A stretch of DNA of 64,000 nt, from assembly GCA_003971905.1 (NCBI GenBank), contig RSEE01000064.1:124001-188000 (forward strand), read 5' to 3'. The notes under the pieces are model-generated. The model saw only the letters and a program-made list of their open reading frames with translations. It was not told the origin of the DNA and did no database searches. The DNA is from Moniliella sp. 'wahieum' (Eukaryota). Each line of letters opens with the position of its first letter. The stretch's first letter is position 1. Of the stretch, positions 1-61,936 are shown in pieces. The translations under genes were made by a program, and so were the position numbers.

Positions 1-145
1 CGAAGATTGAAGCACCCTAGAAACGATAGCCCTCGACGGCACAGGGCAAGTGCCAACATAGGGACGAAGTATAGCCTGCCTAATCGACCTGATCCCGCGC
101 ACGGGCTCCTATCCATGATGATCACCGGGATCGGTCATGCATCAT
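1..145. repeat. Dispersed direct repeat A, copy 1 (probably continues off the left edge)
   Basis: cgaagattgaagcaccctagaaacgatagc...ccatgatgatcaccgggatcggtcatgcatcat aligns by eye with 2648-2796, with scattered substitutions and indels. Confidence 0.92.
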
Positions 146-2647: not shown

Positions 2648-2796
2648 CGAAGATTGAAGCACCCTAGAAACGATAGCCTCGACGGCAGGGGCAAGTGCCC
2701 AACACAGAGGCGAAGTAGGCCTGCCTGATCGGCCTGATCGATGATCCCGCGCCCGGCTCCTGTCCATGATGATCACCGGGATCGGTCATGCATCAT
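2648..2796. repeat. Dispersed direct repeat A, copy 2
   Basis: Similar to 1-145; lies about 250 bp upstream of the GH5 ATG. Confidence 0.92.
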
Positions 2797-13190: not shown

Positions 13191-13221
<31 letters not shown>

Positions 13222-13461: not shown

Positions 13462-13966
13462 GGTGGGGGTGGCGGGGGGGTGGCGCGCAGGGAGGCGCCT
13501 GGGCGGGTGGGCGCGCCGGCGTGTGGGTGGGTTGGCGCGCAGGTCCGCCCCAGGCGGAAGGAGCGGCCGGTCCACCGCACGCCACGCCCAGGGCAGAAGC
13601 AGAGGCCGTTGGGCGGCAATGTTCAACCAGCGGTGCTGTGTGCGCTCATCGCATCCCACCCGATCCATCCCACCTCCCGTCGAACCATCCCACCCGCACA
13701 TCGCACATCTCACCGCGTCGCCCACTAGGAAGAAACGTTTACCGTTTGCCGGTAACCCCCCCCTGGCGCTCCGACGCGCACCCCACGTGCCACCGGTCAC
13801 CCCGCTGCCACGCGCGTCTCGCCGCTTCTTCCGCCCGCCTTTCGCCCGCCCTTCCGCCTGCCTTCCGCCTGCCTTCCGCCCCGCCCTTCCGCCCCGCCCT
13901 TCCGCCCCGTTTCCCCCCCTCCGCCCTCCACACCCCCACACCCCCTCCCCCCCTCCCCCCCCCATC

Positions 13967-15271: not shown

Positions 15272-15345
15272 AAGTACCAAGTACTAAGTACCAAGTACCA
15301 AGTACCAAGTACCAAGTACCAAGTACCAAGTACCAAGTACCAAGT
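15272..15345. repeat. Heptanucleotide microsatellite (AAGTACC)n, about 10 copies
   Basis: Directly visible; begins 4 nt after the glutaminyl cyclase stop codon. Confidence 0.95.
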
Positions 15346-17252: not shown

Positions 17253-19395
17253 GGTGTCGGCGGCGGAAGCGGGGCGGGGCAGGTGGGCCAGGCGGTATAG
17301 AAGAGTAGAGGACAGAGATAGAGGTCGGGGTGGCGGTGGTGGGCGCAGGCGAAAAAGAGAGCGTAGAGCGCGGCCGGTTGGGGGGTAGCCAGTTAGGCGG
17401 GTAGGCCTAAGCGTAGGACTTGGGGAGGGAGAGGGGCAGCGTGGGGGAGGAGACTGGGCCCAAGGCGAGGGGGCGCAAATGGCGGGGTTTTAAAGTGGGC
17501 TGCGTGGGGGCGAGGCGAGGCGAGGCGAGGAGGGAGGGGGCGAGTGCAAAAAAGAGTGCGAGACATGCGTGCTGGATTGCACATGGGAGACCCAGCAGAG
17601 AGAGAGAGAGCGTAGTGTGGATCCGTGTAGTAAGTAAGTAGCAAGTAGCACGCCGCCTGGGATCCAATTCGCCCGCGGCCGGCCAGCGCGATGGTGTGCG
17701 GTGGCTGAGGCGGTGGCAGGCCAATACCAAATGCACGGTGGTCCGTGCAGACCGCCCGACTGGCCAGGGCCTGGTGGAGGATGCGTTTTGCCGGGCACTG
17801 CACCGCGGCACACTTCTCGCCTCCTTTCGCCCCTCTCGCCTCGCACCAAAACACGGCGGACTGGGCGGACGCACCGGCCGTAGCCCCCAGCGCCTCACGC
17901 CTCGCCACGCCTCAATATTCAATCCTTGCGTCACTTGGGCCCCGAACGCCCAGCTCGCCTGACCGGCCAACCCCGCCCTACGTCCGCGGCCGTGGCGGCG
18001 GGCCAGCCGGAGTCGGTCCATGTACTTCCCAGTTCCCCATCAATCATTAATCATCGATCGTATACGTACCCCATCCTCCTCCAAGCTTCACGCTTCTGAT
18101 GTCGGACAGGTTGCATGGGACACTGGTCAGATGCCTTAGGCCTTACGTTGCCCCTCCCACCATGTCCTATCGATTATCTGAGATCTCACATGCCGCATGT
18201 CACATGTCACCATTTCACCACCGAAAAAAGATACGCTGACCAATTGTCGTTCATGCTTCTGCCTCTCTGCCGTGTGCTGGCCTGCTCAACATGGACTCCA
18301 CCAGCCTTCTTTTTCTTTCCCTTCGCCCTTTCTTCTCAGGGACCATTTCTCTCGTGCCCATCCCCATCCCCAGCAGATCGACCCCCCCCCCCACCCACGC
18401 CCACACTCGCCCCATCATTAATCATTAATCATTCCCGCCTCCGCCCGCGGCCCATACGGACGTACACAAAACGTAAACAGAGGTCTCATCGGTTACCTCG
18501 ATCAACTGCCCACTGCCCACTCCCCAATCCCCCCCGCGACGAGAGAGTCTGGTACCTTCCCACATCCGAGCCTGCCACTGTCCGGGTGAGTTTTTACGAC
18601 GATGGGAACATTGCAATAATGACGGTTTTTTTCCCTTCTCATCCCCACCCCCACCCTCCCCAACACACTCACCCACACACCACGGAGGTGGGGGGGTGGC
18701 GCCCAGGTCCAATCCACTGTTTTGCCTGGGGACCGAGCGCGACGAAGACAGTGGGAAGAAAAACGCCGCGCGCGAGCGCCGCAAGTCTTCTAATGGGTCT
18801 ACGACGCTCAGTATAGTACCTCACTATAGTAGGGCCAGACCGTAACTGTAATCCCGTCCGGGGCCGCCAAATGAATACAGTAGAGGCATAATTAAGGAAC
18901 GCTATAGTGCATCATCGATCATCTCTCCGCGTCATCGACATCATCTTTTCGATCAACTCTGCCACACCGGTATGCATATGTCTTGCTCCACAGCTCAGCC
19001 CTGGGCCTCAGGCTGAGGCACCCCGCGCTGTGGCTGGAAGGAGCGCTTAGCCCTTAGCGCCGCTCACTCCCGGCGGGTTGGGATGCCAACTACTACTAAT
19101 ACCTATTTGCCCGATCTCAGATCTCAGATCCCAGTCTTCTTTAGGACACCCGCCGGGGGAGGGACAACGATCGCGACCGGTACCGGGTACCGAGTACCGG
19201 TTGTACGCCCCAACCGGATTGTAACATGTTCGGATGGCCGGGACGTAAGTATGGATTGGACCATGTCTTGTCTTCCCAAAGTTGTTGGGGTCAAATACAG
19301 TGCAGAACTTGAGACCTGCTTGTATTTTTGTAGTACGCAATTAGAGTATAATCCAGAAAGTGTTTGTGTGAGAAAGATGCCTCTTTTCTTCGGAT

Positions 19396-19437
19396 GACAT
19401 GGGACATGGGACATGGGACATGGGACATGGGACATGC
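19396..19437. repeat. Heptanucleotide microsatellite (GACATGG)n, about 6 copies
   Basis: Directly visible. Confidence 0.9.
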
Positions 19438-20010
19438 TTCCTCCCCACCACAGCACACCTCCCCACAGTACACCTCCCCATTCGAACCTACTGTCCTCCC
19501 CTGACTGGTGACCTGCGCCCGCTGTTGCCTCATAGTGTGCCTGCCTGCTGTCGCCGTACAAAAAATCAGCTTAATCAGGGCTACAACGACAATTGTCCTG
19601 TCCTCCTGAGTCTCTAAGTTATGCTTCTACAGCGAGGCTGGATGAAAGAGTTCATCATCAATTAGTAACCCACACCCCTGCAGTAGCAACGATATCTTCC
19701 AATGCAGCGGACATGCGGTGTACCCGGCCCATACATTCCTGATTCTCTTTCGCCCCAGCAACAGGGGAGGCAGTAGGTAGTATAGCTACCCTCAAAGATG
19801 TATATGGAGGGTCTTTCGGCTTCCAGCGTTCCTTTTTCTTTTGTATCTTGCTTCGCAACAACACGCTACGATGGGGGGCCAAGCACGCTCCTGATGCGGT
19901 GGCGGGGAACGGTGAGGTGGGATCCATCCCTCACCATCCTACCTTGGATTTTGAATCGAGCAAGGACTGCATCCCTGTGGACCCTAATACACACTGCAGC
20001 TGCATCGGTA

Positions 20011-20054
20011 TCGGCATCGGCATCGGCATCGGCATCGGCATCGGCATCGGCATC
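20011..20054. repeat. Hexanucleotide microsatellite (TCGGCA)n, about 7 copies
   Basis: Directly visible. Confidence 0.9.
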
Positions 20055-22974: not shown

Positions 22975-23465
22975 GCGCCCGCAGCAATCGATCATCGAGG
23001 TGGGGTTAGGCAGCTGCCGCAGCACGTAGGTCACGTGGGGGACAGCAAGCCGCGGGGGTGGTTGGCGCGTTCACGCGTCTAGTGAGGCTAGTGAGGCGTT
23101 AGGGTGTCAGGGGGCGTGGCGCCAGCGCAGTGTGGGTCGGAACTCCGAGCGCACTGCAGTGTGTGATAGCTGCGGGCGATGTGGGGTGCAGCTTGCAGGC
23201 GGCGCAGGCGACGCAGGGGGCGCACTCGCACACGCAGCCACCACACCAGCCGTCGGCGGGGCAGCGACGCACCCGCCCGTCAGTAGTCAGTACACGCGTG
23301 TTATGAGCATGCCCACCCGCGTCGCGCCCAGCACGCCTCCATGCCTCCCGCATCCGCTCCGCCCACACCATCTGCATCGCCGCCCATCCCTCCTGCCGCG
23401 TCGCCAGCATCCGCGTGCGCCCCCCTGCGCATCCCGCCTCCGCCGCCCCGCCCCCGCCCACCACC

Positions 23466-30587: not shown

Positions 30588-31350
30588 TAGGTTAAGTGGT
30601 GGGGATCCTGGGGGGGCTGAGGCTCAGCTTGGCGGTTGGTTGTTGTAGTATACCCGCAATCCGCCTATGGCTTGTCTTGTTTTTTCCCCTGTGGGCTGTC
30701 TTCTTTCATGCAGTAGCCGTTGTGGTTTCCTGTCCTCGATAGAAGACAAAAGGGTCAACGTGCACGTGACCGGCTGGATCTGGTGCGGACAGGGGCGCTG
30801 GTGAAACTATGTTGTGAGCCTGCCATGCGCTTGAAGCATTGCAGCTGCTGCGATCCGTTGCTGCGCGGCGGCAGTGCGTTACGTAACACGCGCCCCACAC
30901 TGGGCCTGCGCGCGCGGGCGGATGGGCGAGGGGCGGCGGTCTGTGGCGGTCTGGGCCCATTAATCATTTGATTTTGGGTGATTTTGGGTGACGGGTGAGC
31001 GCTGCGTCCGATGGGCGAAGCGCACATGGCACGAGGCAGGCGCAGGGCCACACGCCGCGCGCCGGGTGTCGGTGCAGCCGGGCGGCCGGTTGGGTGGGTT
31101 GGGCTGGGTTGGGTGCCTAGTAGCTAGTACCTAGTACCTAGTACCTACGCAGGCCTGGTGCATGCCGCATGGCCCAGCGCGCTCCATCCCCCGCTCGTCG
31201 CCCACGCCACGCCCAGGCGCCGCGCATGCATCCACCCTCGCCACCACCACCAACCCGCGCCCTCTCGCCCCCCGGCCCCCTCGCCCTCGCTCCCGCCCGC
31301 CCCTGTCCACCCCACCCACACCCACACCCACGCGCACCCGCCCCCCCGCC

Positions 31351-32547
31351 ATGATCATGCCCGATGCGCAGGCCACTGTGCCCGAGGTCGATGTCAGCAG
31401 CATCATCGACCGTCTCCTAGCTGGTTGGTCCCCCCCCCCCGCGCTCCCCTCGGCTCGCACCGCTGACTGCTGACCCTCGTTCGCTCTGCTTCTCCATCGC
31501 TCAGTGCGTGGACACCGGCCGGGCAAGGTGGTCCCGCTCGAGGAATTTGAGCTGCGCTATCTCTGCCTCAAGGCGCGCGACATCTTCATTAACCAGCCCA
31601 TCCTCCTCGAGCTCGAGGCGCCCATCAAGATCTGTGGCGACATCCATGGCCAGTTCTATGATTTGCTCCGCCTCTTTGAATACGGAGGCTTTCCTCCCCA
31701 GTCCAACTACCTCTTCCTAGGCGACTATGTGGACCGGGGCAAGCAGTCGATCGAGACGATCAGCTTGCTGCTGGCGTACAAGATCAAGTACCCTGAAAAT
31801 TTCTTCATTCTCCGCGGCAACCACGAGAGCGCGTCCATCAACCGCATCTATGGCTTTTATGACGAGTGTACGCCCTGCTTTCTTTTTTTTTCTTCTTCCC
31901 CTCCTCTCTTTCATCTCCTTGCCCCACATTGTCTTGGTTCTCTGTTGGTCCAGTCGCATTCTAACGCCTCCCCCCCCCTTCCTTTTTGTACAGGCAAGCG
32001 TCGATACAACATCAAGCTATGGAAGACATTTACCGACTGCTTCAACTGTCTTCCTATTGCTGCGATTATTGACGAAAAGATCTTCACCATGCACGGAGGT
32101 CTCTCTCCCGACTTGCAAAGCATGGAGCAGATTCGTCGTGTCATGCGTCCCACCGACGTGCCGGACACTGGGTTGTTGTGCGACCTGCTCTGGTCTGACC
32201 CGGACAAAGACATCACTGGCTGGTCCGACAACGACCGCGGTGTGAGCTTTACCTTTGGCTCGGATGTCGTCTCGCGGTTCTTGCAGAAACACGATTTGGA
32301 CTTGATCTGTCGTGCGCACCAAGTGGTTGAGGATGGCTACGAGTTCTTCGCCAAACGTCAATTGGTCACCCTCTTCTCGGCGCCAAACTATTGTGGCGAA
32401 TTCGACAATGCCGGAGCGATGATGAGCGTGGATGAGACTTTACTCTGCTCCTTCCAAATCCTCAAGCCGGCCGCCAAGAAGCCCAAGTACACGTATTCCA
32501 ACCAGACTGCCTTTACTAGTCCGCGACGCCAGGGTGCCAGCTCTTGA
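31351..32547 (+). CDS. GLC7: Serine/threonine protein phosphatase PP1 catalytic subunit; introns 31424-31504 and 31868-31993
   Basis: Motifs [43 protein letters not shown] and SAPNYC. Splicing restores IIDRLLAVRG and FYDECKRRY. Confidence 0.97.
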
Positions 32548-38826: not shown

Positions 38827-39453
38827 GGGAATGCATTGGTACCGGAGCGTCCCGTACGGGACTCAGAACATCACGGTCGGTTGCTATCCCCTCCGTCCTC
38901 CAACCGATAGTGAGATACAAGCGAGGGAGGTCCAGCCAAGGGCAAGAGGATAGGATTGGATAGTTGGATAGGATAGAGTTCAGGTTACGACCCTCCTAGG
39001 AGGGACACTTTGGGATGTTAGGGCGAGGCTCGGTTTGTGGGTCAGGTACAGCGAACTAGCTGGTCGGTACGACGTCCTCGGACAGGCGGAGACCTGGACC
39101 CCAAGTCCAGGGAATCCTCCAACGGAAATACATAACAAATTCGCTCAGCATCTCCGGGCCCACCCCCCCGCTTTCCCTAACCAGAGGCGTAAACTCGACT
39201 CTTGTTCACTGCGACCGACTGACATGGAACACAAGCTGGGTCCAAAGGGGGATCCGGCGAAGAAATTGATCCTAGCTCGAACAGGAGGGGGGAACAGTGG
39301 ACTCGTAAGCAAAAAAGCGTGATACGTCGAGGCTGCCGGTGATGCCGATAAGATGGTTGCCGGTCTGCAGGGACGCGGTCGGCTCGATCGGTAACATGTA
39401 ACAAGGGATGATGTCGTGCCATGCCCGAGCCCGGGAGGTGCGAAGCCGTTTGA

Positions 39454-39497
39454 GCGAGAAGACGGTCGCGAGAAGACGGTCGCGAGAAGACTGTCGC
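39454..39497. repeat. 14-nt tandem repeat (GCGAGAAGACGGTC)x3
   Basis: Directly visible in intergenic DNA. Confidence 0.85.
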
Positions 39498-40100
39498 ACA
39501 AGCAAATTCCGCCTTGGTGAGTGGCAGAGCGTTGGAAGGCGTGCGCAGGCTAAACTGGAATGGCTGAATTGGCTCTCGATCGTTCCACGAAGAGAGCCTG
39601 AGAAAGGTGCGGGTGAGAAAAAGAAAATACTAAGAACCCCAGTCCCCAGTTCGTGTGGAGTATTCGAGCACGGGAGTTGGGCATGCGTGAAGCTAGGTTG
39701 CTGTTGTGCGAGATGGTGGTTGCGCGGACGGTTTTGTCGCTGCTGTAGAATGGTGAATGCACCTTGGTAGGAAAGGTTGCGAGATAGTTCACTGGGTTCA
39801 TGTACTTTAGCCTAGTGGTCTTTGCGACGTGGATAAGGGACCGGAGGCATCGCCAAAACAAGGAGGGGCCGGTGGAACAGATAGGAGACGAGACAACCTG
39901 ACCTGGCAAATCGAGCAAGAGCATAGCCAGACCCTCGTCGCCGCGAGCGGAGAAGAGAACGACCGGCACACCCTTGTGGATCGCCGTTGTTGCTCAGATC
40001 CCATCCAACTCGGTTGGACTGCTGGGTTTGGGTTTGGCACAAGGCACGGCAACCACTCTCCAGGAATCAGTTGTCCATTGACGCCCTCCATCCAGGTCGG

Positions 40101-41851
40101 TTACGCCGGGGCCTCGGGTTCAAACCAGAGAGGCGGTACGCCCCGTTCCGACGACTTGGACATGAGGCTGACCCATGTCTGCAGCCCCGAAGGTGTGGCC
40201 AGGAGCTCGGCCTTAGCTTGTGCATAGGCGACCGATAAAGGGGCTCGGGGGGGTAACGGTCCACTGATCGACGCGGCTTTGGGCGGGAATCGGCCACCGG
40301 GAATTTTGCGCGCTGCGCCCAAGTTGGTGGCGGCGCGAAGGAATCGGCCATTGGAGGCCTGTTGTGCCAGGGGAACCACCGAAAAAAAGGGTCTCGGCCA
40401 GGGGCAGTCCACTCCAAAACGTCCATCTTTACGTCGGTAGGTCGGACAGGGACCGAGTCAAAGGAAGGAAGGGTCTTGTGAGGAGGTGGGATCGTATCTG
40501 CGGGCGAAGTGGGCTGCCGTTCGGACGAAGCCGGATCCAAAGAGGGAAGGGATGGCTTGGTAGTAGTGGGTGTGGATACTTCCATTTTGACGTTCTCTTG
40601 GTCCCCATGAGCGTTGTCTGAGGATGCCCTGCGGGAAAACTGGTCTTGTACAGCGAGCGGCGACCCTTTACTGGGCGTAGAGGCCGGAGAACCAGCTTCT
40701 TTTCCCAGCTGCTCGTGCAGACGCGGAGATGGTTGGTCCGGCGGCCGCATGGCAGAGTCGGACCGTGGAGGCAATGCCGGCGGGGGTTCTAACGAAATGA
40801 TAGGCGTGGGAAGCGAGCGGGCACTGTCCAGAGACGCCTCTCTGAGCTCCAAAACGGAGGTACTGGACCCTGGGTGTTGCAAATGGCCACGTTTGGCCTG
40901 TGCGCGCGCTTTGGCCCGCGCGCGGGCTTCATGTAGCGTACGGGGACGATTGGGGTTGCGGGCGTCCGCTTCGGCTTCGAGGGCAGCCAGGACACGCAAC
41001 TGTTCCGCCGTTGCGGATGCCTCTTCGACTGGTGGAGCAGGCGTGCGGGAAGGAGGGGTGCTCGCCACGCTCGTCATAGTCACCCCGCGTTTGCGCGGGG
41101 GGCGAGTGAGCACCTCCTCGTGCGTGTCCGCATCCGAGCCATACTCCGAGCCTGAGCTGAGCGAGGGCGCGTGGTGCGGCGCACTAGAAGTGGAAACGGT
41201 TGTGACAGTGTGCGACGGGGCGTGAGACGAGCCAGAGGATAAAGCAGCAAACTGGGAAGTGAGCCTCGCTGTCCCCCGCTCCCCTTCGGCCGTCGAGTCA
41301 CCGGCGGGCACAACGACGGGAGGAGGATGGGTCTGACTGGGGTTGCTGGTGTGAGCCAATGAGGAAGGGGCAGGGAGTCCTGGTTGGAGTACTCGCTGCC
41401 CGAGTCGTCGCTCGTCATCGGACCACGCATCTGAGGCTCGAGAGGCGGGGGGGCAAAAGAAGGGGAGGTGTGTCCTGGGGCCCAGACGCTGGCCCGACGG
41501 CTGGAGCGACGGCTGGAACAACAGCTGGACCGGCGGGACCAGCGAAGGCGGGATGGGGCTGAGGGTGCCAGTGTGGCCGAGGGAGGCGCGGTGGGAGGCG
41601 TCGGTGCTGCTAGCACCGCTCATGGCGCTGAAGCGGTCGAAGGAAGCAGGGGAGATGCCGAGGCCGTCGCCATAGTCGGAGGGGGAGCTGAGCGAGGGCA
41701 GGGGCAGCTGGTGCAGCGCTGCCGGCGCCAACGACACGGCGGCGGGGGGGCTGGGGGACTGGGCATAGGCGTCCTGGGCCGAGGCGAGAAAGTAGTCGCC
41801 GCCCTGTGGACGCGGCACCGCCAACGGAGTGGCGGCGTTGTGGTCGTCCAT
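40101..41851 (-). CDS. Hypothetical Ser/Pro-rich protein (3' end approximate)
   Basis: Long ORF from MDDHNAATP (41851) with helical islands (EQLRVLAALEAEADARNPNRPRTLHEARARAKARAQ). A probable frameshifted C-terminus reads YAQAKAELLATPSGLQTWVSLM...EAPA*. Confidence 0.55.
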
Positions 41852-41968
41852 CCCAGCGGCAAGGCGATGGTGGCGACGGGAGACGGCGGCGGGCAGGAGG
41901 TATGTGGGGCGCGTGGCGCAGCAGCCCACCCGCGCGCCTGCGCTTCTCTTCTCAAACACACAAAAAGC

Positions 41969-42058
41969 TTCCCCAACCGGGAGTCGAACCCGGGTCTTCA
42001 CGGATCAGTCGAACAGCGACTTGAAAGCGTGACATCATAGCCGTTGGACCATTGAGGA
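41969..42058 (-). tRNA. tRNA-Glu (anticodon TTC) with 18-nt intron
   Basis: Reverse complement is TCCTCAA-TGGTCCAACGGCTATGATG-TCACG-CTTTCA[AGTCGCTGTTCGACTGAT]C-CGTGA-AGAC-CCGGGTTCGACTCCCGG-TTGGGGA-A. The acceptor, anticodon and T stems pair, the intron is at canonical 37/38, and a T5 terminator follows. Confidence 0.95.
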
Positions 42059-50163: not shown

Positions 50164-50235
50164 TGGACGAACAGGGAATTGAACCCCGGACCTCATGCAT
50201 GCTAAGCAAGCGCTCTACCCCTGAGCTATCCGCCC
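50164..50235 (-). tRNA. tRNA-Ala (anticodon AGC)
   Basis: Reverse complement is GGGCGGATAGCTCAGGGGTAGAGCGCTTGCTTAGCATGCATGAGGTCCGGGGTTCAATTCCCTGTTCGTCCA (72 nt), with the G3:U70 alanine identity pair and A and B boxes. Confidence 0.95.
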
Positions 50236-50537
50236 ATGATGGACGTGGGTCTGTTACTTGAGTAGGGTTAGTGGTCACGTGCACCCAAACCCAGTAGCAG
50301 GGTTGACTGGTTGGTTACGCCGTACGACCGGCCAAGAGCCGCAATGGCCGATGGCCACCCACCAATGCTCCCGCGGAGCAGCGTGTGCTGAGCCTGCGAG
50401 CCTGCGCTGAGACGAGGCGGATCGATCGATCGCTGATCAGATACCGAGTGCGCTGGCTTGCATGCACACGAGCAGCACTCACATCTCGTCGCCACCACCA
50501 CCTCGCCATCGCCACCGCCACGCGTCCTCTCTCCATC

Positions 50538-53375
50538 ATGGCGGCTGCCTCCGCGTCTGCGCTTGCCGCAGCCCCTCCCCCCTCCTCTTCCTCCCCGCGC
50601 CCAGCAAAGCGCCTGCGCCCCCAACTCAGCTGCGACACGTGCCGTGCCAGCAAGCTCAAGTGCGTGCCCCCTCCCCCTTCCCCCCGCTCTCCCTGCTCGC
50701 TGACCTCGCCTGCCCCTCCCTCTCCTACCCCCCCCTCCCGCCAGGTGCGACCGCGAGTCCCCATCTGTGCCACCGCGCCCATGGCCGCTCACCCAACCAG
50801 TGCACCCGCAACGGCATCCCTGTCCTCCATGCACCCCAAGTGCGCCGTCGCACCGCCCCCGCCCCCCCGACGACCCCCCACGAGCCGCATCCCATCGGCC
50901 CTTTCCCCGCCTCCCCTCCGTCCCGCCCCCACCTTTGCCCCTGCCCCCTACCTTGCCCCAGTCTCCCATCCGCCCCCATCCCTGCCATCCGACTCCCCCG
51001 CCGCGCCCTCGCCTTCCTCCCGCGGCGATCGCAGCGCTGCTTCCGTTGGCTCCGACACGCACCACCCCCCTGGAGTCAACCGGGACCCAACCAGCACCAT
51101 TGCGCCCGTTAACATGACCCAGCCTACATCCGAACTTGCCTGTCGGGCACGCAGGCTGCTGCCCCCCCGGCTGGGCAGATGGAAGCTGTACTGGAACTGT
51201 ACTGGTCCAAAATATCTGTCGCTGCGCCCTCGTATGACCCACACCTGATGCTGCAACGCACACGCGACCTGTACCTTCTCCCCTTGGGAGAAGAGCCGGT
51301 GCAGGTGGGCAATTTGACCGGCATGACATTGCCCATGCTAGCGTGGCTGTGTGCTGCATGCTCTGCCGTCTTCCGCTTGGCTCAGCCCACCCGGCTGCTC
51401 ATCTGGGGGGTGGTGGACGATGCGTTTTGTGGCACGCAAAGCGTGTGAACTCAACACGCTTGCGCGCGAATGTCTCCGCCGAGCGGCGGCCGCGTTTGGG
51501 TGAAAAAGCGCTTTGCCCCATGCGTGGTTGCCCCGCTGCCTTGCTGCGTATTCAGGCGGGTGTGGCAATTGCCTTGGCAGCCTCGTGTGGCGCCCCAGCC
51601 CGGATGCAGTGAAGTGTTGGACGTAGCCATCCGCTGGGCCCGCCAAGCTGGACTGGACAAGATGGGCAAGATAAGCGAACGACCGCGCACGCTGCATGAG
51701 TACGAAAAGGCGGGATGTTGGCTGGCGTTGGTGTGTACCGACTGGCGTGCGGCTCCTTACATGGGCTGCTACACCATCTTCCCGCAAACCTTCTCGACCG
51801 AGTGGGACCTATCGATGGACGATTTAATTGAAGGCTATGCCCAGGCGGCCAAGACTGCGGGCCAAAAACGCAAGTTCTCTCGGATCTAAGCGAGGCGGAG
51901 CGCGCCCCCGAGGATGCGGATCAAGGGGCGGATGAGACCGAGGAAGCGGATGAGTTGCAAGAAGCGGACGAAGAACAGGAAGCGGATACGGCGCAGGAAA
52001 CCAACGAAGCTCCGACCGCTCGGAGCACATGTGGAGGCGTGGACGCCCATGCATCCATGTGGGTGTGGAAGTGGCAGATCCAGTTGGCCGACGAGGCGCG
52101 CAAGCTATGTGACTTGGGCGTGCACGATGCCTCACAACGGGTGAATGTGGGGTACGACAAGGTGGTGGAGCACGACCGGTGCTTGCAGCAGCAACTCTGC
52201 CAACGCCCTCCCGAGCTAAAGGTGGGCGAATGCAAGAAACAAGATCGAGAACCGGAGGTGCATGCTAAAGTGAAGCGCTTCCCCTGGCTGTTGATGCAAG
52301 CAGTTGCGATCACACTCCCATTACGCGCGATTCTTCTGTCGCTGCACATGCCTTATGTGCTGGGCGGGTACCAGGACTTGGCCCAGCCCGATTCGGGTCA
52401 AGCCTTGTCCATTACCGCCATGGAACAGAGTGTGCTCATTGTTCGTGCTGTCCAACGCGCTTCGACGAAGGACATTCTCCATCGTCAATGGTCTTTGCGA
52501 CACAGCCTTTTCAACGCCGGTCTTCTGCTCATTTGACCTTCTCCTGCGCACCTCCTCCCTCCTCGCCGCATCTACCCAGGCGGCGCATTCGGAACGCACT
52601 CCCTGGATGAAGAGGTAGCACTGGCGATCGAGTGCCTCGATGACTCTTCCTGGCGTCGCGGCCGGTCCGAGACGATCGACGTGCCGTGGGTGAACAACTC
52701 GGACTTCCCCTCGCACTGGGTCGCGACTGCTCAGGTTCCAATGGTGTGCCGGGTCCCATGGGAATGCAGCATTTTACCGGGGAACGACTGGAACGGTTAC
52801 TCGTTCTTGCCCTCAACCGGAACGGACAACAACAGGGCGATGGAGCACGCGCTGTGGATTCGTACATGCAAGCCTACACCACCGACCTCATCGGGCACCG
52901 TCGATCCATCCGCCGAGGCACGTCCCCTCTAGTATCTTACCTGCTGCACTTCGCTCCGTGCCTCGCGCCCAAGCGCTCGAATCTACTGCTCCCTCTACGG
53001 TCGACGTGTCTACCCTCGATCCAACTGCTACCACCTCTTCGTCCCATTGGTTCCCACCTCGGCTCCACCCGTTCCTCCCGCGTCCGATGAACCCCGGTTG
53101 GACTTACCACTGCCTCCTTCTTTCCCTCTTCGACCGGTTCCTACCGACTGGCCTACCGATTGGCCCCCGGAGCCGTCTGGGGCGCGACAAACGTCGCGAA
53201 TCTCTTGCAGTTTGCCGATTCCTCCACGGGCATTCCCGTCGACCAGATCCTCGCCGACCCGTTCCTGGTCAATTTGACCAACCGGAGTACCCCCATGTGT
53301 AACGATCTAACGGGGCAGTGGAATTGCAGCTGCTGGGCCGGTGAGCCGGTGAGGCGAGGCGTGTGTGGATCTTGA
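50538..53375 (+). CDS. Zn(II)2Cys6 fungal transcription factor; intron 50660-50744; many frameshifts; 3' end approximate
   Basis: KRLRPQLSCDTCRASKLK|CDR..ICAT(C)AHGRSPNQC after splicing and indel correction. The downstream region resembles a middle-homology region (AIRWARQAGL, CWLALVCTDW, LSLHMPY). Confidence 0.8.
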
Positions 53376-55226
53376 GTTATCGATTATCCAATGTATACTT
53401 TTGCTTGGTGTGATGTTAACGTCCGTTTTGTCTTGTTTGTGCTTTAGGACTTAGTCGAGATATAGATTGAGATAAAGAAGCATAGGGGGAGGAGGCCGCT
53501 TCAGTCGCTTTCGTTGATCATAGGAACACTTCTATCTTAGGGTATATTGACCCGCATGGGAAGAGTGGGCGAGGTTGCTTTGGTGGGACGGGAATCTGTA
53601 CCGAGTAGAGGACTTTATTAGGTAAATCATTACTCAGTACATATTGGCCGTCAACGTCGTCAACGTTCAACGTTCAACTCAGTTTTGAGAAGAAGGATCA
53701 GATCGATCAGATCGTCAGATTCATAATCTGAATTCAGGGGGTAGTATAGACGAAGACCGAACGCCAAGGTTTTGCTCAGAGGGGCCGTATCTTATAGGCG
53801 GAGTTAGGGCAACCTTAGCCCGGCCTTACGGGTACCGGTAATTGGTAAAGCCCTCTATAGAACGGCATTTCAGAAGGGCGATATGCTCGGTATCAGTCGG
53901 CAGAAAGGCGAAAAAGCCGCAGCACTCTAGTATTGTCAAGAGTTAATAAATCGGCTGAAATGGCCTGCACTTTTTACCTCAGCTGCCCCGTGACACGTTC
54001 CCAGCCACCCGCAGCCAGAGTATCGGTGATATTATTTGCCCTCTCCAGCGTGGAAGGGTTCCAGCGTGGAACGGTGGACCGGGGAACGGTGGCTACGGTG
54101 GCGATGGTGGGCCGGGGAACGGTGGCTAAGGTGGCGACCAAGTACCAAGCTGGGGCAGCTGACCGGGCCGTAGGCCCGGTGGTCTCCTCGTCTAACATAA
54201 AAGGGGAGGGGCAATACCTGACTATAATAGGCCCGACTAGTCCAGTGACTGTGACTAGAGTGACTAGTGACCAGTGACTAGTGACTAGAGACTGTGGTGC
54301 CTATGCTTTGGCCCGGTTCTTCCTGTAGTTACTAGCTTCTTTGACTTGTCATTTGACTAATCAGTACGTCACTATACTGAACTGTAGTCGCCTTAGCCCT
54401 CCCCCATGCTCCATGCCGCATTCTGCGTGTCATCGAGACGCATAAAATTCCATTCATTTTGGACACGACGGTGCTGCGACACTCGCCCTTCAACAGCCAC
54501 TCAGGTCGACAGATAGTACAGCGGGGCTTTCAGTCTATAGCACACAGGTTCTTGTTGTTCCGGTTACCCCAACGAGATGGAGAAGAGGTGGAGGCAAGTT
54601 TGATTATTGGTCAATTCAGAGGCATAGAAGAGATATGTACTACTTGTTCCTTAGTTTGATATGCGGGTTTAGTGATAATCCTCTCGCTCATCTTTCGTCA
54701 TCATGCATCAACGTGCATTGTTTGATTCCCCTATCCTCTTTCTCATCTCGGTAGGGACTACACGAACCCTTTCGCGTATCAGCCTTCAGCCTCAGAGCGC
54801 TCAGTGGCTCAGCTTGTCGTGTGCTGCTGTCGCTTGCTGGAAGAATCAACTGGATTTCCTGGCAACGGAGGCAAGAAAAGCAGGGGCATTCCGTGCAATG
54901 GCCTCAGTTGTTTGAAGTCCTGGTAAGCGCCAAGCAAGGCTAATGCGCGTCAAGCTTCAAGAGAGATCCAAATGGATTCGGACCTGCTACAGTGTATACG
55001 TATACCCAGTCCAGAGGCTGAAGCGCGGAAGCAGGCGACTGAGAGGCCTCGGACTGCGATGAGGCACGAGCAGGCTCCCTCATGGAAACAAGGCAATATT
55101 GACCCGACTGGGGGACCACAGCCCCACCAGCCTGGCACACCCGAGCCAAAAAGTCTGCCGAAGCGCAGCGCCACGGTTACTACATGCTGGATACCCACGC
55201 GGGGCCCAACAGGGCCCACCCAGAGG

Positions 55227-55957
55227 CTAGCGCCGCACCGCTTCACTGTGGTCTCCGCGCTCCCATGGCTGCAATGGCCAAGGTGTGCGGAGTCCCGTCA
55301 ATATCAATGCGTCACTGCACCAGGAGCATCTTGCCGGGCGGCGGGGCGAGTAGAAGACGTGTGTATGGGCCAAGGCGGGCAGAGAACGCAGGTCGGGGAA
55401 GCGGCGCTCGAGCTCGGCAAACACGTGTGCGGCGAGGTCGCTAAAGCGGGAGATGGGCAGGTTGGCTAGCTTTTGGCGAGCATGGCTGCGCTTGGGATGC
55501 AAGTCGTGGTGGGGCGGGAGCACGAGAGGCGAGGGCAGGAGGCGGCGCAGGTGCTCGTCGTACACGTCGGTGGAGAGCTCGGCCAACTGCTGGCGGCTGA
55601 GACGGGCGAGCTTTTCGCGCGCCCTGGAGCAGCCGACGCGTTCGGCTGGCAGAAGGTGGGCCGTCAGTGGCGCGAAAGGGCAGGGGCGAAAGGGCAGGGG
55701 GCGAAAGGGCAGGGGGCGAAAGGGCGGGGGGCGAAAGGGCAGGGGGCGAAAGGGCAGGGGGCGAAAGGGCAGGGGGCGAAAGGGCAGGGGGAGAGGAGGG
55801 GACATACGCCGGTCGAGGTGGTGGTGGAGGAAGTGGTAGAGAGGGCGTGGTAATGGACCTGGGCGAGACGGTGTAGGGCGTCGTGGTCGGGAGCGACGTC
55901 GGGGGCGGGCCTGGCGGACACGGCGGACACAGCGGACGCGTCGTCGACGGTCTGCAT
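55227..55957 (-). CDS. Spa2/GIT SHD-domain protein (short); intron 55646-55807; 3' end uncertain
   Basis: Two SHD repeats, RAREKLARLSRQQLAELSTDVYDEHLRR and HARQKLANLPISRFSDLAAHVFAELERRFP, linked by LPPHHDLHPKR. Intron is GTATGT..CAG. Confidence 0.85.
55671..55790. repeat. 15-nt minisatellite (GGCGAAAGGGCAGGG)n, 8 copies, intronic
   Basis: Directly visible; lies within the predicted intron of the Spa2-like gene. Confidence 0.93.
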
Positions 55958-58900
55958 GGCGCCAACGGCCAAAGGAAGGAGGCGTGTGTGCTACCCAGTG
56001 GTGGGGGCAGCGGCGCAAACAGGCAGCTCAAGCCCTTGGCTTGTGGCCTTCCGGGCTTGTCCGAGCCAACAGGCGGAACCAGTCGGAAGGGCGCGTCGCT
56101 AGCCGAGTGCCCTCAGCTCAGCCGTCCATCTTCCTCCCCTTGGCCCTTGGGCTTCTCACGCTTGGGGCGGACGGGTCCCCTGCTCTCGCGTCGCCCCCGC
56201 GCTGCGGAGCCTGGATGGTTCATGCGCTGCTCATGTGGAGGTGCCTATGCTGCACAGTCAGAATTGAAAAAAGAAGGAGGATATGCCTGTGACATGTGAC
56301 ACGGACGAAGAGCTTATGGTCAAGCATGGCCGGGGGGGATAGGATACGAAGCGTACAACAGGATAACATGTAACACCACAGAGAAGAGTAAGGCTGCTGA
56401 ACTTCTGACCCTTTGCAAGACTTCAGCTGTCAGAGAACTCAGGCTGGTGATTGGTAAGCCTCACTGCTCCACTCGTAGGTACCCCGTCAGCTCTCAATCT
56501 CGTGGACACACACATGGTCCAAGATGTAGATGCGTTGGTGTGTTGCCGCGACTGCACTGCTGCGACCCCCACTCATCATGCAGATGACGTTGTTTTTGGC
56601 GCATCGGCCTATCCGTTGGAAGAGGTCGTCACTCACCCATTGTCGTGGCCTGAGTAGATCCCTGAGAGAGGCCTGAGGCTCAGGCCTGAGGCATTGACGA
56701 TCGTCGGCGATATGATAATGATTAACGAGAGGCCTCTGAGGGTGTGATAACTTTGGTCTTAAGAGATGGCTCCGCGCTCCCCCGCGATTTCCCCCCCCTG
56801 CCATGGTTCGGAGAACTGAGGGTTAGGCTTTGGAGCTGGAAGAGCTGGAAGGGCCTGTGATGCATGTGAGATGTGGGAACGTGACGCGTGACGCATGAAC
56901 CTAAGAAGCTGTTGGGCGACAAGTGAGGCCGGTGACTACGACTGTGGTGAGAGGGCCGGTGAGCCCGATGTCGATGGCGTGTGACATGCATGTGACATGC
57001 GATCCCCCGCGTGACGTGTGACATGTGACGCGTGACGCGTGACGGGCGAGGCAGTCGGCGCCCGGCGAGCCGGTGGGATCGGAACCCCCCCGGAGGCACA
57101 ACACGTGTGGGGGTTTTGTACGCAATGTGGCGCTGTGGGTCGCCAGGGGTCCCTGGGGGCCTCACCGGTGAGCCGGTCATCCTCGAGGCCGGTGACCGGT
57201 GGGGGAGTCGACAGGAGAGATGAACCGCTCAAAATGCACTCGAGCCGAATTACAGAGCCCACATAATATCCGTCATGTTGGCCGAAAATGCATATAGGGT
57301 GCGACTATGTAGCTTTTTGAGATCTTTTCAAGGTTCAGTGTTCAGTGAGTGCGAAGCTAGCGAAGCTAGTGAAGAGGCCAGTTCTAGTGACTAGTGGCTA
57401 GTGTGGGGCCGAGGCCTGATCCTGAGGCTTGGTGAGGGATCGATGAGGAAGACCTGAGGTGTGTCGAGCACAGCTCGTTGTGCAGTGGCGTTCTCGCGCT
57501 TGCTTTGCGTTCATATTTCAGTCAACACACGCGCCCCCTGGCGTTCGTGCCATCGTGCCTGCACGTCCATCCAAGTAGGCGCCATCTCAGTGTGGTCTGC
57601 CAGAGTCGCCATGCGCCGCGGGGTCCATACTCCTCCTGTGGCTCTACATCCCCTCAGCTGTCCCACCTTGTCCATATCGCCCCCCGCACTTTGATCCACT
57701 TGGCTCGCGGCGGCGAACCTGCCGGAGCGCGGTCTCATTCGTTCCTCCCACCCGCGCTTGCGACAGCGAGAGCCGGCGGCGGCGTTAAGCCTTAAGCGCC
57801 GGGTGCGCGTTACTAGTAACTAGCGCTGAGACGCTGATCAATCGCTGACCATCGATCATCGATCATGTTTTGTGTCCCTGAGAGATGGGATGTCGATGAG
57901 ATGCATGGCAGTCGCATGGCGGGGCGCCGTGTCCGGGTGACCGGTGACCGTTCCCGAAGAAAATCGATGATTTATGTGGTCGATGAGGTCGATGACGCAT
58001 CGATGACGCCCGGGATATCCCGACGAACTATAGCCATGCCCCCAGCGGGGTCTGGCCTCGACCTTCCTATCGCCCTCGGGCACCTCCACACAGGCCTCGG
58101 CCCTCGACCCGGCGCGCAGAACGTATGGAAGTATGTCTTGGTCTTGGGTCGTTCGGGCGGCCGGTGCATGGCGGGCCAAATGCGTAGGTGGAACGGGGCC
58201 GTTGGAAGAGGACATGCATGATGCATGATGCATCGACCTTGGGTACTCAGTGCCTCGCCAGCCTCGCTTCCCCACACGCCCCGCGTCACGCGTCACACAC
58301 GTCACACACACAAATGCGGGGTGCGTACTGCGTGTTGCAGGCAACTATGCGCGGTGCACGGCACGTCACGCGTCACCGGTGAACGTGCGCTGATGCTGCT
58401 CGAGGGCAGGAGGGCAGTGCATCTTTGTCTGTTGAGACGTTGGGGTCCGCCGGCCCTCAGAGCACCAGGCCACAGGCGGCCTAAACTCCTCAAAGAGGCC
58501 GAGGGCGAGACCAACCGGGTGAACTTATACCCGGGCATAGTCCCGTCGCCCCGAAGCGTGCGGTGATCGGCTGAGACTTGTGGGGGTGTGGGGTAAAACC
58601 CTGGCCCCGCCACCGTGTCCCTGGGTGTTGTACCTCGTCTGGTCCGTGTTACATGCAGGAGATACGTATTCTCATCCATCTCAGATATCGGAAGATCTCA
58701 GCGATCTCAGCCCAGATATCCCCACCGCTGCTCCCAAGCCGATCGCGTACGAGGAAAGGCACAAACCTGGGAGCTGTGCGATGGCAATTATGCCCTAAAT
58801 CTCCGGTGATGACCATGCTCAGGCCCTCAGTCCTCAGGAGCCTCAGGCTACACTCTATCAAATCTCAGTACTCAGTACTCAGTGAGTACTCAGTACTCCG

Positions 58901-59957
58901 TGTACTCATGCAACCCATGTAGGCCGTATCCAATTCGGCATCCCCCGCCGTGTCCCACCGTTGGTCTGCTGCAATCGACAATCGCTCTTCAAGCTAGCTT
59001 CAAGCTTCAAGCTTCACACAGTCACACGCCCTCTCCCCTGCTTGCGCTCGCGCCTCCTTTCTCAGTCGGCTGTGTGGGCCAAAGCGTGACGATCGTCAGT
59101 GCCGTCAGTGACTACACCGGCTAGTGACTACTGACTAATAATAGTGACTGACAGCCTCTCGCGCTCCTCAGATCGTGCCCTCCAGGAAGCAATATCTGGA
59201 AGACACCTTAGGCCTTAGGGAGGGAGCCGAGCTTAGGCTATCGACTATCGGTGCCACACTACCCTCTCGTCACTAATTCACTAGTCACTAGTCACTGGTC
59301 ACCGGTCACTCCAAGTCACTATTATTGCGGACGGGTGGGTATAGTGACCGCACCATATCCTAAAACGAATATTATTCGCGCAACACTGTGCCTGCAGGTG
59401 CATACATGTCGCAAACGAGCAAGCCTTTCTCCACACTCGCCCCACTGCGAGTCTCAGTTGTCCACAAAAAATCTTGGTTATCGTTTTGCGAGGCACACCC
59501 TTCAAGCTTCAACTCTTCAAGGTTCACACGTCACGCATCATGCACATCGTTATGTCCATCCCCCACATCATGCATCATGCATTATGCTCCCAACGCAGTT
59601 GCCAGAGCACCAGGGCACAAGCGATCGCTTGGAGGCAGTATATGGCCTTGAAGCTTGATGCATGATGGCCATAATATCCTCAAGCTGGCCCCCTGGCCTT
59701 CTGGTGCATGATCACATATGAGCCAGCAGTGTGGGGGGAGATTATGCATGCCTGTGCCCTTCAAAAAGAGCCCCCCCCCTTCGCCCGCATCCCTTTATAC
59801 CCCCCACCCACCTTTCCTCCCTCTCTGTCACTCTAGGCCCGCCGTCGCCCCTCGCCAGCCCCCCTCCCACATCCCACCTCTTTCTCTCAACCAACACCTC
59901 CCAACCTTTTCGCTGTTCTCCACCCCGTTTCGTCTAACCCGCCTCCGACTTTCCGTG

Positions 59958-61936
59958 ATGAAGAAGTTTGAGTTGCCGCAAGCGGCTGCCTGGCGGGTAG
60001 TGCCCAGCGAGGCCTTTAACCGCCATTACCTCTTTTCCGCCTTGACATTTGGTCTGCTCGGCCTGGCGCGCGGGCTGGACGAAGGTGTGATCTCGTCGCA
60101 GGTGCTGATGCCGTCCTTTATCCGTGACTATGGAGTGGAGCCCAAATCGAATGCGCAGAGCAACGTGACCTCCATGGTTCAGATTGGATGTGTGGCCGGG
60201 TCGCTGCTGGTTGGTACACGAGCGATCGACTAGGCCGTGTACGGAGTTGCCAGATCACCTGCTTCTTCTGGGTCTTGGGCGCCGTCATCTGGATGGCTAG
60301 TCCAGGGCGGCTGGGTCAACTGTACGCTGGTCGGTTCATCACTGGTATTGGTGTCGGTGGCACCGCGGTCTGTGGACCAACCTACCTCGCTGAAGTGGCT
60401 CCCAGAAGCCTCCGTGGTAGTTTGATTGGCGTCGGTCTTTTCTCGGGCAATGTGTACCTCGGCACCTTCCTTGGCTACTGTGCCAACCTAGGCGTTCAGC
60501 GCCATGTTAGCGATGATTCGCGCAACCAGTACCTGATCCCCACCAGCCTCAACGTCATTTTTGGTGGCTTGTTCTTCTTGGCCACCTTCTTTATTCTGGA
60601 AAGGTACGGAATAATACTCGCGTTAATTGGATGTGGGGGTTTGAAAATGGGGGACACGCTACTAACTCGTCCTCGTCCTTCTTGTCTGTCTACTGTCCAT
60701 GTGTTGGTTTGCCTTACCCAGCCCCCGTTGGCTTGCTAAGAAACACCGTGAGGAGGAAGCGTACGCCAACATGCTCAAGCTCCGTCAACTTCGTCCCGAA
60801 CATCCGTATCTCCGCAACGAATGGAAGCCATTCTGGAATCGATTCGGGTGGAAGAAGAGGCACGGGGAGCTACTGCGCTGGTACCACTCTATTCTTGCCC
60901 TCTTCCAATCCTCGGAGAACATCTACATTATCTGCTGCACCATCGGCGCCCAAGTATGGGGCCAATTTAGTGGCGCCGGCAGCATTTCGGTTTACGCACC
61001 GCAGTTGTTCCAGATGGTCTCGGGCAAACCCAGCACCAAAAGATTAACCCTTCCACCACCGTGGTCTTGGGGCTGTCAGCTCGTGTTTGCCCTTGCCTCG
61101 CCCCTCTTCTTCTTGGACCGGTACGGACGCAAAGCGGTGGCGATGACTGGGATTGTGTGCCAAGCCTCGGCCATGCTCTACATTGCCATTTACCTCCGCG
61201 TCTCGTCGGGAGATGATGAATCGGCTTCCAAGCGGCACGGTGGTGTTGCTGCCATTGTGGCCCTGTTCGTCGGGGGAGCCTCCTGGGCAGGCGGCATCAA
61301 CTCGATCCAGTACGTATACAATCTGTCTCTTCCCTTCTGTTTATTCGCTGGGAGCTGTGTGTGACAGGCAAAAGGCAAAGAAGAACGGGTTTTGTTCTGA
61401 CGAGAGGGGTTCTTCTTTTTTTCCCCTACAGGTACCAACTCGGGCCCGAGTACCTTGGCGTCACGGTGCGTAGCCTGGGCACGATGATGTCGATGGCGGT
61501 GCACTTTATCTGTCAATTTGGCGTTCGCGCGCCGTTAATCCGATGATTGCTCGATGGCGCGCATGGGGGTTGTTCCTGTTTTGGTCGATGGAGAGTTGCG
61601 TATGCCTTTCTTGGCCTGGTTCTTTTTGCCCGAATCGGCGGGCTGGAGCTTGAAGAGATGAGCACCCCTGTTTTCCGGTCCGTGGTACAAGATTGGCTGG
61701 AAACCAACGTCCCTTTAAGGAGGGTGTCGGTTGAGGAGGAAAATAAGATTGCCGACGAAGACTTCCCTTATAGGACGATGGAAGACAAGACTTCCACACC
61801 GATTGGGGGCGTGGTTACTCGCGATGATGACATTCAAGCCCAAGAACCCGCTTTGCAGTACTCCGCTGCACCTCAAATCCACTTGGCCGGCGAGCCAAGC
61901 GACGACAAGAAGGACGATGAGATCAAGAAGGCTTGA
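59958..61936 (+). CDS. MFS sugar-porter family transporter (quinate permease-like); introns 60604-60721 and 61310-61431
   Basis: Motifs ARGLDEG, SDRLGR, LYAGRFITGIGVG, PTYLAEVAPRSLRG, ESPRWL (after splicing), GQFSGAGSISVYAP and LDRYGRK. Confidence 0.9.

Follow-up and report, generated by a model that had tools for sequence, protein, structure and literature searches.

TNA-bounded seven-nucleotide units with flank-copied palindromes in the intergenic DNA of a Moniliella contig, possible excision scars of a cut-and-paste transposon

The stretch of DNA analyzed here (64,000 nt, hereafter the window; positions 124,001 to 188,000 of contig RSEE01000064.1, assembly GCA_003971905.1, from Moniliella sp. 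'wahieum') is GC-rich (about 60%) and eukaryotic in organization, with short introns, ordinary housekeeping genes and spacers of 2-4 kb. Pfam matches in the window comprise an epimerase, GH5, a mitochondrial carrier, a HODM-like protein, OPT, PP1, a GTPase, UTP25, a ubiquitin/UBA protein, EMP24, RPN11, ZIP, a Spa2 homology domain and a sugar transporter. The UTP25 exon finds its best match in a named species in Tilletiaria anomala (47% identity), and two further assemblies match it at 68% and 65%, which places the fungus in the Ustilaginomycotina, probably among the exobasidiomycetes. The Spa2-like gene and the sugar-transporter gene, the latter of the MFS type, are transcribed away from each other across a spacer of 3.85 kb, in which the triplets TCA and TGA recur every 7 nt around self-complementary 4-mers. 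This intergenic pattern, first noticed in a preliminary description of the spacer (56660-59670), is the subject of the present work.

The eight arrays quoted in the preliminary description are all present in the sequence (57012-57042, 57850-57866, 58215-58232, 58366-58382, 58865-58881, 59000-59016, 59278-59308 and 59649-59665). In the window as a whole, T[CG]A-N4-T[CG]A occurs 119 times and its 4-nt spacer is palindromic in 62 instances, compared to 52.2±7.6 in total and 3.18±1.83 palindromic (maximum 10) in 200 dinucleotide-preserving shuffles made in 1-kb blocks; 36 of the instances, 24 of them palindromic, lie within 56660-59670. No other spacer length stands out (0-3 and 5-11 nt, 33-71 occurrences each versus about 52), nor is there an excess of palindromes among spacers of 2, 6 and 8 nt (11, 1 and 2 versus 12.0, 0.88 and 0.18 expected), so the excess over shuffled controls that the preliminary description had anticipated is present and is confined to spacers of 4 nt. 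The same structure is seen when the search is made by period: exact arrays of period 7 with two or more copies number 57, and 27 of them consist of a 6-bp palindrome plus one base (expected share, 11%); 25 of these 27 have the form A-NNNN-T, the only form of 6-bp palindrome that is enriched in the window (246 versus 155±11). When repeats of arbitrary units are surveyed for inverted fillers, period 7 yields 155 of 600, compared to 11.4 of 92.5 in shuffles, and periods 6, 8 and 9 yield no excess. We conclude that the 7-nt intergenic pattern is real and highly non-random.

The preliminary description had expressed the pattern as T(C/G)A followed by a palindrome with interchangeable cores. The triplet stands but is wider than proposed. 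The triplets most enriched after a 4-nt palindrome are TGA, TCA, TTA and TAA, and in a survey of structures of the form abc-palindrome-abc, TCA/TGA gave 54 instances versus 2.3 expected and TAA/TTA gave 8 versus 0.2, while no other triplet stood out save inside a few long unrelated arrays; the triplet is thus T-N-A with any middle base. Among palindromes of odd length, only those centred on TNA are enriched (20 13-mers versus 3.0±1.6), those centred on ANT, CNG and GNC being at chance. As 34 of the 40 odd palindromes with arms of at least 5 nt have palindromic 4-mer arms, that is, the period-7 structure, this structure accounts for the odd-palindrome excess entirely, and a general enrichment of odd palindromes or hairpins was rejected. 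TNA directly followed by TNA is not enriched either (56 versus 54.0±7.0). Merging of overlapping instances left 73 loci, among them 40 isolated TNA-P-TNA 10-mers (P being the palindromic 4-mer) and 9 isolated P-TNA-P 11-mers, and TNA is therefore the outer boundary of the structure.

The palindromic core, by contrast with the earlier formulation, is not free but copied from the flank. Thirteen different cores are in use across 64 TNA-P-TNA chains, and in 58 of these chains the flanking dinucleotide equals at least one half of the core, for which the chance rate is about 12%. Scoring a chain as right-templated when the first half of the palindrome recurs in the 2 bases that follow the last TNA, and as left-templated when its second half recurs in the 2 bases ahead of the first TNA, we found 25 chains templated from the right only, 20 from the left only, 13 from both sides and 6 from neither; templating from exactly one side exceeds the expectation under independence (Fisher p = 0.001). 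The extension ends sharply, with match rates to a continuing repeat of 0.73, 0.70 and 0.38 at positions +1, +2 and +3. The minimal unit is thus the 12-mer TNAxy-y'x'-TNAxy, a 5-nt direct repeat around the reverse complement of its last two bases, which occupies 77 positions in the window versus 0.26±0.48 (maximum 2) in 100 shuffles; the equivalent 12-mers [zNz'xy][y'x'][zNz'xy] built on ANT, CNG and GNC occupy 2, 2 and 0 positions. When the form is relaxed to [n a x y][y'x'a'][n a x y], 106 positions fit; a is A in 91 of them, 77 of which have T in front, from which we conclude that T and A both belong to the ancestral site. The wider context is weakly R-TNA-Y: of 45 oriented events, 31 have a pyrimidine at x (p = 0.018) and 28 have a purine immediately before TNA (p = 0.12). 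Of the 77 triplet pairs, 62 share the middle base, 10 have complementary middle bases and 5 differ in some other way. An elementary event recurs at T-N-A in non-coding DNA in which the 7 bp l2 l1 T N A x y are duplicated; its commonest product is TNAxy + y'x' + TNAxy or the mirror image, which adds 7 bp.

Rarer members of the product family emerged from a search for two full copies of a TNA-centred 7-mer split by a short filler. At seven period-9 loci the filler of 2 nt reads as the reverse complement of bases from one of the two copies, either the end of the left one or the start of the right one (for example ACTGAAG-gt-ACTGAAG, AGTGAGG-ct-AGTGAGG and TCTCAGC-ga-TCTCAGC), and four loci carry other 2-nt fillers. 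Four period-11 loci have a 4-nt filler made of inverted copies of the ends, as in TGTGACA-tgca-TGTGACA, and one locus has a 3-nt filler that matches inverted ends. Inverted-end fillers of 2-4 nt are accordingly found at 12 of 17 loci with TNA centres versus 2 of 41 with ANT, CNG or GNC centres (Fisher p = 5e-7), and the inverted bases derive from either of the ends that meet at the junction. Since the 7-mers are non-palindromic at six of the seven period-9 loci (the exception, GATCAGA at 53696, is an odd palindrome whose filler fits both ends), the duplicated stretch is a true 7 bp centred on TNA. Plain tandem duplication of any TNA-centred 7-mer was considered as the main route and rejected, as non-palindromic spacers amount to 57 of 119 instances versus a shuffle total of about 52.

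A segmental duplication of about 150 bp (1-145 and 2648-2796, copies about 2.65 kb apart) brackets an epimerase/NmrA-like gene; its copies are 100% identical over the first 31 nt and 98% over 42 nt, with small indels. One difference between these paralogs is a clean 7 bp, cc-TGATC-ccgcgc in one and cc-TGATC-ga-TGATC-ccgcgc in the other. A second paralog alignment, of 330-560 with 2110-2340, was too diverged to use.

The sharp edges and the inverted fillers bear on two further explanations. In the first, the units would be born as microsatellites and spread by slippage, favoured for units capable of forming hairpins. The window is extremely rich in short tandem repeats and slippage can add copies once two units exist, but spacers of 2, 6 and 8 nt show no excess of palindromes, the effect is restricted to TNA centres, the arrays, though numerous, are short (52 of the 64 chains are single units, whereas generic 7-mers reach 6-11 copies), and neither sharp 12-nt edges nor inverted fillers are products of slippage. 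We regard this as the least probable of the explanations weighed here, contradicted as an origin and possible as a secondary expansion. The earlier contention that simple slippage fails to explain the frame common to unrelated arrays is borne out. Slippage should depend on a unit's repetitiveness and not otherwise on its sequence, and should add whole units, in contrast to the strict requirement for TNA and a 4-nt palindrome seen here.

In the second, replicative template switching, a nascent strand would copy TNAxy, run back for 2 or 3 bases on the complementary strand and realign at TNA. Such an excursion can describe the commonest product, and a later switch-back would yield the class with complementary middle bases (10 of 77). 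Quasi-palindromes centred on ANT, CNG and GNC should, however, serve equally well or better, yet they account for 2, 2 and 0 positions versus 77; at period-9 and period-11 loci the start of the next unit, or both ends, would have to be copied in inverted orientation, which follows readily from two processed break ends but is contrived for one excursion of a polymerase; and a loopless fold-back within one strand is, in our judgement, sterically implausible. Because only TNA centres are affected and both junction ends supply inverted bases, we consider template switching unlikely. The footprint of a template-switch process, one of the origins proposed in the preliminary description, is thus supported in so far as the pattern is a mutational scar with inverted templating, although its details favour the repair of hairpin-capped break ends at a duplicated 7-bp target over replicative switching.

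Each event duplicates TNA in the same context. As TNA is copied together with its templating dinucleotide, further events or slippage give homogeneous arrays, and mixed arrays arise because separate events use the left and the right flanks of one TNA. The change of cores within arrays, to which the preliminary description had drawn attention, can in this way be attributed in part to events on both sides of one triplet (59649-59665); the other core changes fit two-step CpG transitions, as suggested by the series CGCG to CGTG to CATG at 57012-57044 and CCGG to CTGG to CTAG at 59278-59308. In an 18,950-nt sample of the spacers, CpG is mildly depleted (observed/expected 0.85) and TG and CA stand at 1.13-1.14, a possible sign of cytosine methylation or deamination.

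The middle base of the triplets is coherent over kilobases, with 10 CC among 12 pairs at 15.6-19.2 kb, 6 GG among 11 pairs at 56.25-58.0 kb and 11 CC among 15 pairs at 58.25-59.62 kb, the preference flipping near 58.25 kb. Outside the motifs the ratio of TCA to TGA in the same three regions is 43:25, 25:44 and 26:14, so that the coherence runs in the same direction as the local TCA/TGA and GC skew but is stronger. Inverted pairs across the spacer are not collinear and are merely common motifs, which gives no large-scale mirror symmetry.

The pattern extends beyond the spacer in which it was first noticed, and units cluster in all the larger spacers of the window (0-3, 15.6-21.2, 27-28, 33.3, 48, 53.6-55 and 56.3-59.7 kb). 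Only 3 of the 64 chains lie wholly within stop-to-stop open reading frames (ORFs) that match Pfam, all three N-terminal to the aligned domain, and one more straddles an ORF edge. These ORFs contain 530 of the 2,116 TNA sites of the window (binomial p about 1e-4), and the pattern is therefore not equally frequent in coding DNA, where frameshifting 7-bp insertions are expected to be selected against. The distribution bears on a further origin proposed in the preliminary description, a selected cis-regulatory or structural code in which TGA/TCA half-sites at 7-bp spacing, or cruciform palindromes, would act in promoters. Enrichment in spacers, including two divergent promoter regions, and the coherence of the middle base over kilobases speak for such a code. 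The depletion in coding DNA would, however, be expected of any 7-bp insertion, and the middle base tracks the TCA/TGA background outside the motifs. Moreover, the core has no identity of its own: it is dictated by the adjoining dinucleotide in 58 of 64 chains, it takes 13 forms with no flanking consensus past the weak R-TNA-Y, and one unit is present in one paralog and missing in the other. A selected code is thus not supported, and we hold it to be very improbable.

The reading that we favour is that the pattern consists of excision scars left by a cut-and-paste transposon at a 7-bp TNA-centred target, to which we give an even chance of being correct and in which the agent is what we infer. 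Two properties of the products argue for it. The target duplication is retained, as 7-mers at the seven period-9 and four period-11 loci and as 5-nt repeats at the 77 period-7 positions, and the junctions carry inverted bases templated by the flanks, that is, P nucleotides (58 of 64 chains; 12 of 17 fillers versus 2 of 41 controls). The restriction to TNA centres and to period 7, the depletion of chains in ORFs that match Pfam and the discrete 7-bp difference between the paralogs, whether gain or loss, speak for it as well. Scars of Ac/Ds are described as palindromic copies of flanking DNA made via hairpins (account in PMC4561436), and in a yeast they are reported as P-nucleotide insertions with two predominant forms that make up 53 of 128 (data given in PMC5873905).

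In the pathway that we propose, the element would insert at l2 l1 T N A x y with a stagger of 7 bp, the target being one in which T and A are two bases apart around the centre, and its excision would leave both flanks capped by hairpins. Each hairpin would then be nicked 2 nt from its tip, which is the usual position of an Artemis/Pso2-type nick. The left end would thereby acquire the 3' overhang x y y' x' and the right end the overhang l1' l2' l2 l1 on the other strand, both 4 nt long, self-complementary and spanning the same gap. Ligation of the top strand would give TNA-xyy'x'-TNA (the right type) and ligation of the bottom strand the left type; we propose that either strand can be ligated, which would explain both the near-equal split of 25:20 and the rule of exactly one side. 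Trimming of only the added half of one overhang would give period 9, retention of both overhangs would give period 11, and nicks 4-5 nt from the tip would give the minor class with complementary middle bases.

Two other assignments of the parts to a transposon were tried and rejected. If TNA were a 3-bp duplication and the palindrome consisted of 2 nt from each element end, the core would not copy the host flank, and 13 cores would need 13 families. Scars of the Tc1/Sleeping Beauty type consist of a duplication with bases left by the element ends; if, in this manner, the palindrome were a 4-bp duplication and TNA came from the ends, TNA would not be the outer boundary (40 isolated 10-mers versus 9 isolated 11-mers).

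Several points weigh against excision scars. All statistics come from one 64-kb window, which is the sole basis of the evidence. A Pfam search of 238 ORFs of at least 115 aa, and of 130 shorter ORFs in motif-rich spacers, found no transposase; the window holds no TNA-flanked insert bearing terminal inverted repeats (TIRs), and no TIR-like ends were found inside 1,234 pairs of identical TNA-centred 7-mers. The 7-bp difference between the paralogs is compatible with gain and loss alike. Past the 2-nt extension the match rate to a continuing repeat is 36 of 90 (0.40) versus 0.26 from base composition, worked by hand, and some chains are therefore decayed longer arrays. We know of no superfamily in which a 7-bp duplication occurs together with a TNA centre and with hairpin palindromes that are even-centred. 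Finally, 64 chains for 2,116 TNA sites in 64 kb is very dense for excision scars, and the scars are far more uniform than documented ones: 8 of 94 excisions in rice are given as 'perfect' (figures in PMC4423477), and 128 Ac/Ds excisions in Candida gave 28 footprint types (figures in PMC5873905).

Density and uniformity would better suit an element-free endogenous process, in which TNA sites in open intergenic chromatin would be broken repeatedly by a repair pathway or by a nuclease of the host, such as a domesticated transposase, and the breaks resealed with a 7-bp duplication and hairpin-type junction bases, never with an insertion. Frequent, uniform products are what a resident enzyme of fixed geometry would leave, rather than scattered end-joined excisions, and neither element nor transposase lies within the 64-kb window. 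On the other hand, a low-copy element located elsewhere is compatible with so small a window, a 7-bp direct duplication is the natural result of staggered integration and gap repair, and to our knowledge no element-free nuclease reaction yields both a duplication and hairpin ends. We judge this process to be unlikely, to the same degree as template switching.

Comparison of the proposed scars with known systems yields partial likenesses together with mismatches. In V(D)J coding joints the hairpin is opened about 2 nt from its tip, which leaves a 4-nt self-complementary overhang and 2-nt P additions, and this even-centred geometry is exactly that needed here. RAG and Transib, however, make 5-bp duplications, which the period-7 product taken alone would allow but which the 7-bp copies kept at period-9 and period-11 loci do not. 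The target consensus of hAT elements is nTnnnnAn; here T and A stand two bases apart around the centre and not at positions 2 and 7, although a length of 7 bp agrees with hAT7. Ac/Ds, itself a hAT system, usually duplicates 8 bp, unlike the 7 bp centred on TNA, the even-centred 4-mers and the narrower product spectrum seen here. It resembles the present case in that both copies of the duplication are kept and are joined via P-nucleotide palindromes derived from hairpin-capped flanks (as set out in parts of PMC4561436 and PMC5873905). As hAT palindromes are described as centred on the complement of the base that adjoins the element (passage in PMC5873905), hAT would give complementary middle bases, whereas 62 of the 77 pairs seen here share one middle base and 10 have complementary ones. 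PIF/Harbinger elements (mPing/Pong) share the target, since the PIF/mPing transposases are stated to need the T and the A of TNA with any middle base between them, but they are credited with a 3-bp duplication and precise excision through 5' overhangs derived from the target-site duplication (both in the account of PMC4561436), in contrast to the 7-bp duplication found here and to the lack of enrichment of TNA-TNA without a spacer. The cut-and-paste families hAT7 and Kyakuja of basidiomycetes have 7-bp duplications and are described in PMC12730594 from Pucciniales and Agaricomycotina but not from Ustilaginomycotina; by the length of their duplication they are candidate precedents for the agent.

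Heptamer-repeat hairpins are also known from bacteria (STRR-like), with 7-nt units that often contain GTGAC/GTCAC with CTAG, CCGG or CTGG variants. A metagenome scan with one 17-nt array (TCACTAGTCACTAGTCA) returned at least 130 loci; most among the matches listed hold only the CTAG-type unit, and no fungal relatives of the array were found among the listed matches that were inspected. On the bacterial-like contigs inspected (L062, L055, L043 and L023) the arrays reach 10-17 units and lie in short gaps between densely packed ORFs. Long runs of TGACTAG/TCACTAG-type heptamers on contigs of this kind often switch orientation to form mirrored arms (L023:3223-3300, L056:56-100 and L062:4898-5097), and the CTAG, CTGG and CCGG variants recur as in the fungus. 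The fungal units, unlike these, are mostly single, TNA-bounded, flank-templated and not mirrored, and the bacterial arrays are a different phenomenon.

Representative units, together with the genes on either side of the divergent spacer, are collected in the table.

Table. Positions in the window of the divergent spacer, its neighbouring genes and representative TNA-bounded units
Feature	Position	Strand	Remarks
Paralog copy A, single TGA (cc-TGATC-cc)	84..100	+	'Empty' state or 7-bp deletion
Paralog copy B, period-9 CCTGATC-gg-CCTGATC, then TGATC-ga-TGATC	2724..2750	+	Latter 7 bp missing in copy A
TCA-TTAA-TCA-TTAA-TCA array	18415..18431	+	In the Mito_carr/HODM divergent spacer, outside the region first described
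Period-9 AGTGAGG-ct-AGTGAGG	23081..23096	+	
Period-9 CGTCAAC-gt-CGTCAAC	53649..53676	+	Runs into a TCA-ACGT period-7 array
ORF with Spa2 homology domain	55230..56027	-	Left neighbour; Pfam
Divergent spacer between Spa2-like gene (-) and MFS sugar-transporter gene (+)	56100..59957	.	21 of the 64 TNA-P-TNA chains; Pfam
cg-TGA-CGCG-TGA-cg	56882..56893	+	Both flanks match; amounts to two CGTGACG copies, period-7
Period-11 TGTGACA-tgca-TGTGACA	56980..57000	+	Inverted copies of both adjacent ends
Chain TGA-cgtg-TGA-CATG-TGA-CGCG-TGA-CGCG-TGA-cg	57012..57044	+	Right-type extension; cores fit CpG transitions
TCGA-TCA-TCGA-TCA array	57850..57866	+	Given as (ATCGATC)x2 in the preliminary description
gg-TGA-CCGG-TGA-cc	57936..57950	+	Two GGTGACC copies
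Period-11 GATGACG-catc-GATGACG	57989..58009	+	4-nt filler of inverted end copies
TGCA-TGA-TGCA-TGA-TGCA array	58215..58232	+	
CGCG-TCA-CGCG-TCA array	58282..58295	+	
cg-TCA-CGCG-TCA-CCGG-TGA	58366..58382	+	Mixed; last triplet with complementary middle base
Period-9 TCTCAGC-ga-TCTCAGC	58696..58711	+	Non-palindromic TCA-centred 7-mers; filler is the reverse complement of the adjacent TC
TCA-GTAC arrays	58865..58898	+	With period-11 junction ACTCAGT-gagt-ACTCAGT
CTTCAAG-ctag-CTTCAAG (period 11)	58987..59016	+	Followed by a three-unit TCA-AGCT array
TCA-CTAG-TCA-CTAG-TCA-ctgg-TCA-CCGG-TCA	59278..59308	+	Cores fit CpG transitions
TCA-TGCA-TCA-TGCA-TTA-tg chain	59568..59584	+	
ct-TGA-AGCT-TGA-TGCA-TGA-tg	59649..59665	+	Two events at one ancestral TGA, left-templated (ct) and right-templated (tg)
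Sugar-transporter/MFS gene, several exons	59958..61361 (start about 59958)	+	Right neighbour; Pfam

Other features of the window concern its repeats and base composition. Short tandem repeats of many periods are very dense, with 209 Tandem Repeats Finder rows in 64 kb, and at each of the periods 5 to 15 exact arrays of two copies greatly exceed the chance level; examples are AAGTACC x10.6 at 15272-15345, GACATGG x5.9 at 19396-19436, GCATCG x8.8 at 20002-20054 and CCGTTCCCTA x6.4 at 6412-6475. Within the stop-to-stop ORF of the Spa2 homology domain, about 8 copies of the 15-nt unit GCGAAAGGGCAGGGG (97% matches) occupy 55672-55791 and may encode a 5-residue repeat. In long GC-rich stretches (up to 73% GC; 6000-15000, 28500-31400, 39000-42000 and 50200-53300) both strands carry open frames of great length, such as that on the minus strand at 11218-14349 (1,044 codons). 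Pfam matches are absent from them and TNA-palindrome units nearly so; low-complexity genes are one possible identity among others.

Our literature searches turned up no account of palindromic 7-nt units bounded by TNA in fungi. A hairpin-type excision scar is known in kind; the combination of features reported here is not described in the papers searched. If the units are excision scars, the spacers hold a dense and legible record of DNA breakage and repair, in which every scar preserves its target (TNA), its stagger (7 bp) and the point at which the hairpin was opened (2 nt from the tip). The chemistry of the transposase and the habits of the host in opening hairpins and joining ends could then be read from sequence, and bursts of activity could be dated by the decay of the scars. 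The scars would also explain in concrete terms how a class of 7-nt microsatellites and the excess of A-NNNN-T hexamer palindromes arose. As such features could be mistaken for regulatory motifs, caution is warranted in annotation before arrays of this kind are called binding sites. Finding the agent would add a new kind or lineage of element, or a domesticated nuclease, to Ustilaginomycotina. It is possible, though we consider it doubtful, that the agent belongs to an undescribed superfamily or lineage of cut-and-paste elements with a 7-bp TNA target and V(D)J-like even hairpins, or is a resident, element-free nuclease derived from a transposase. If so, the intergenic DNA of this fungus would be rewritten at a per-site rate that rivals point mutation, with promoters lengthened, 7-nt microsatellites seeded and 6-bp palindromes minted in the process.

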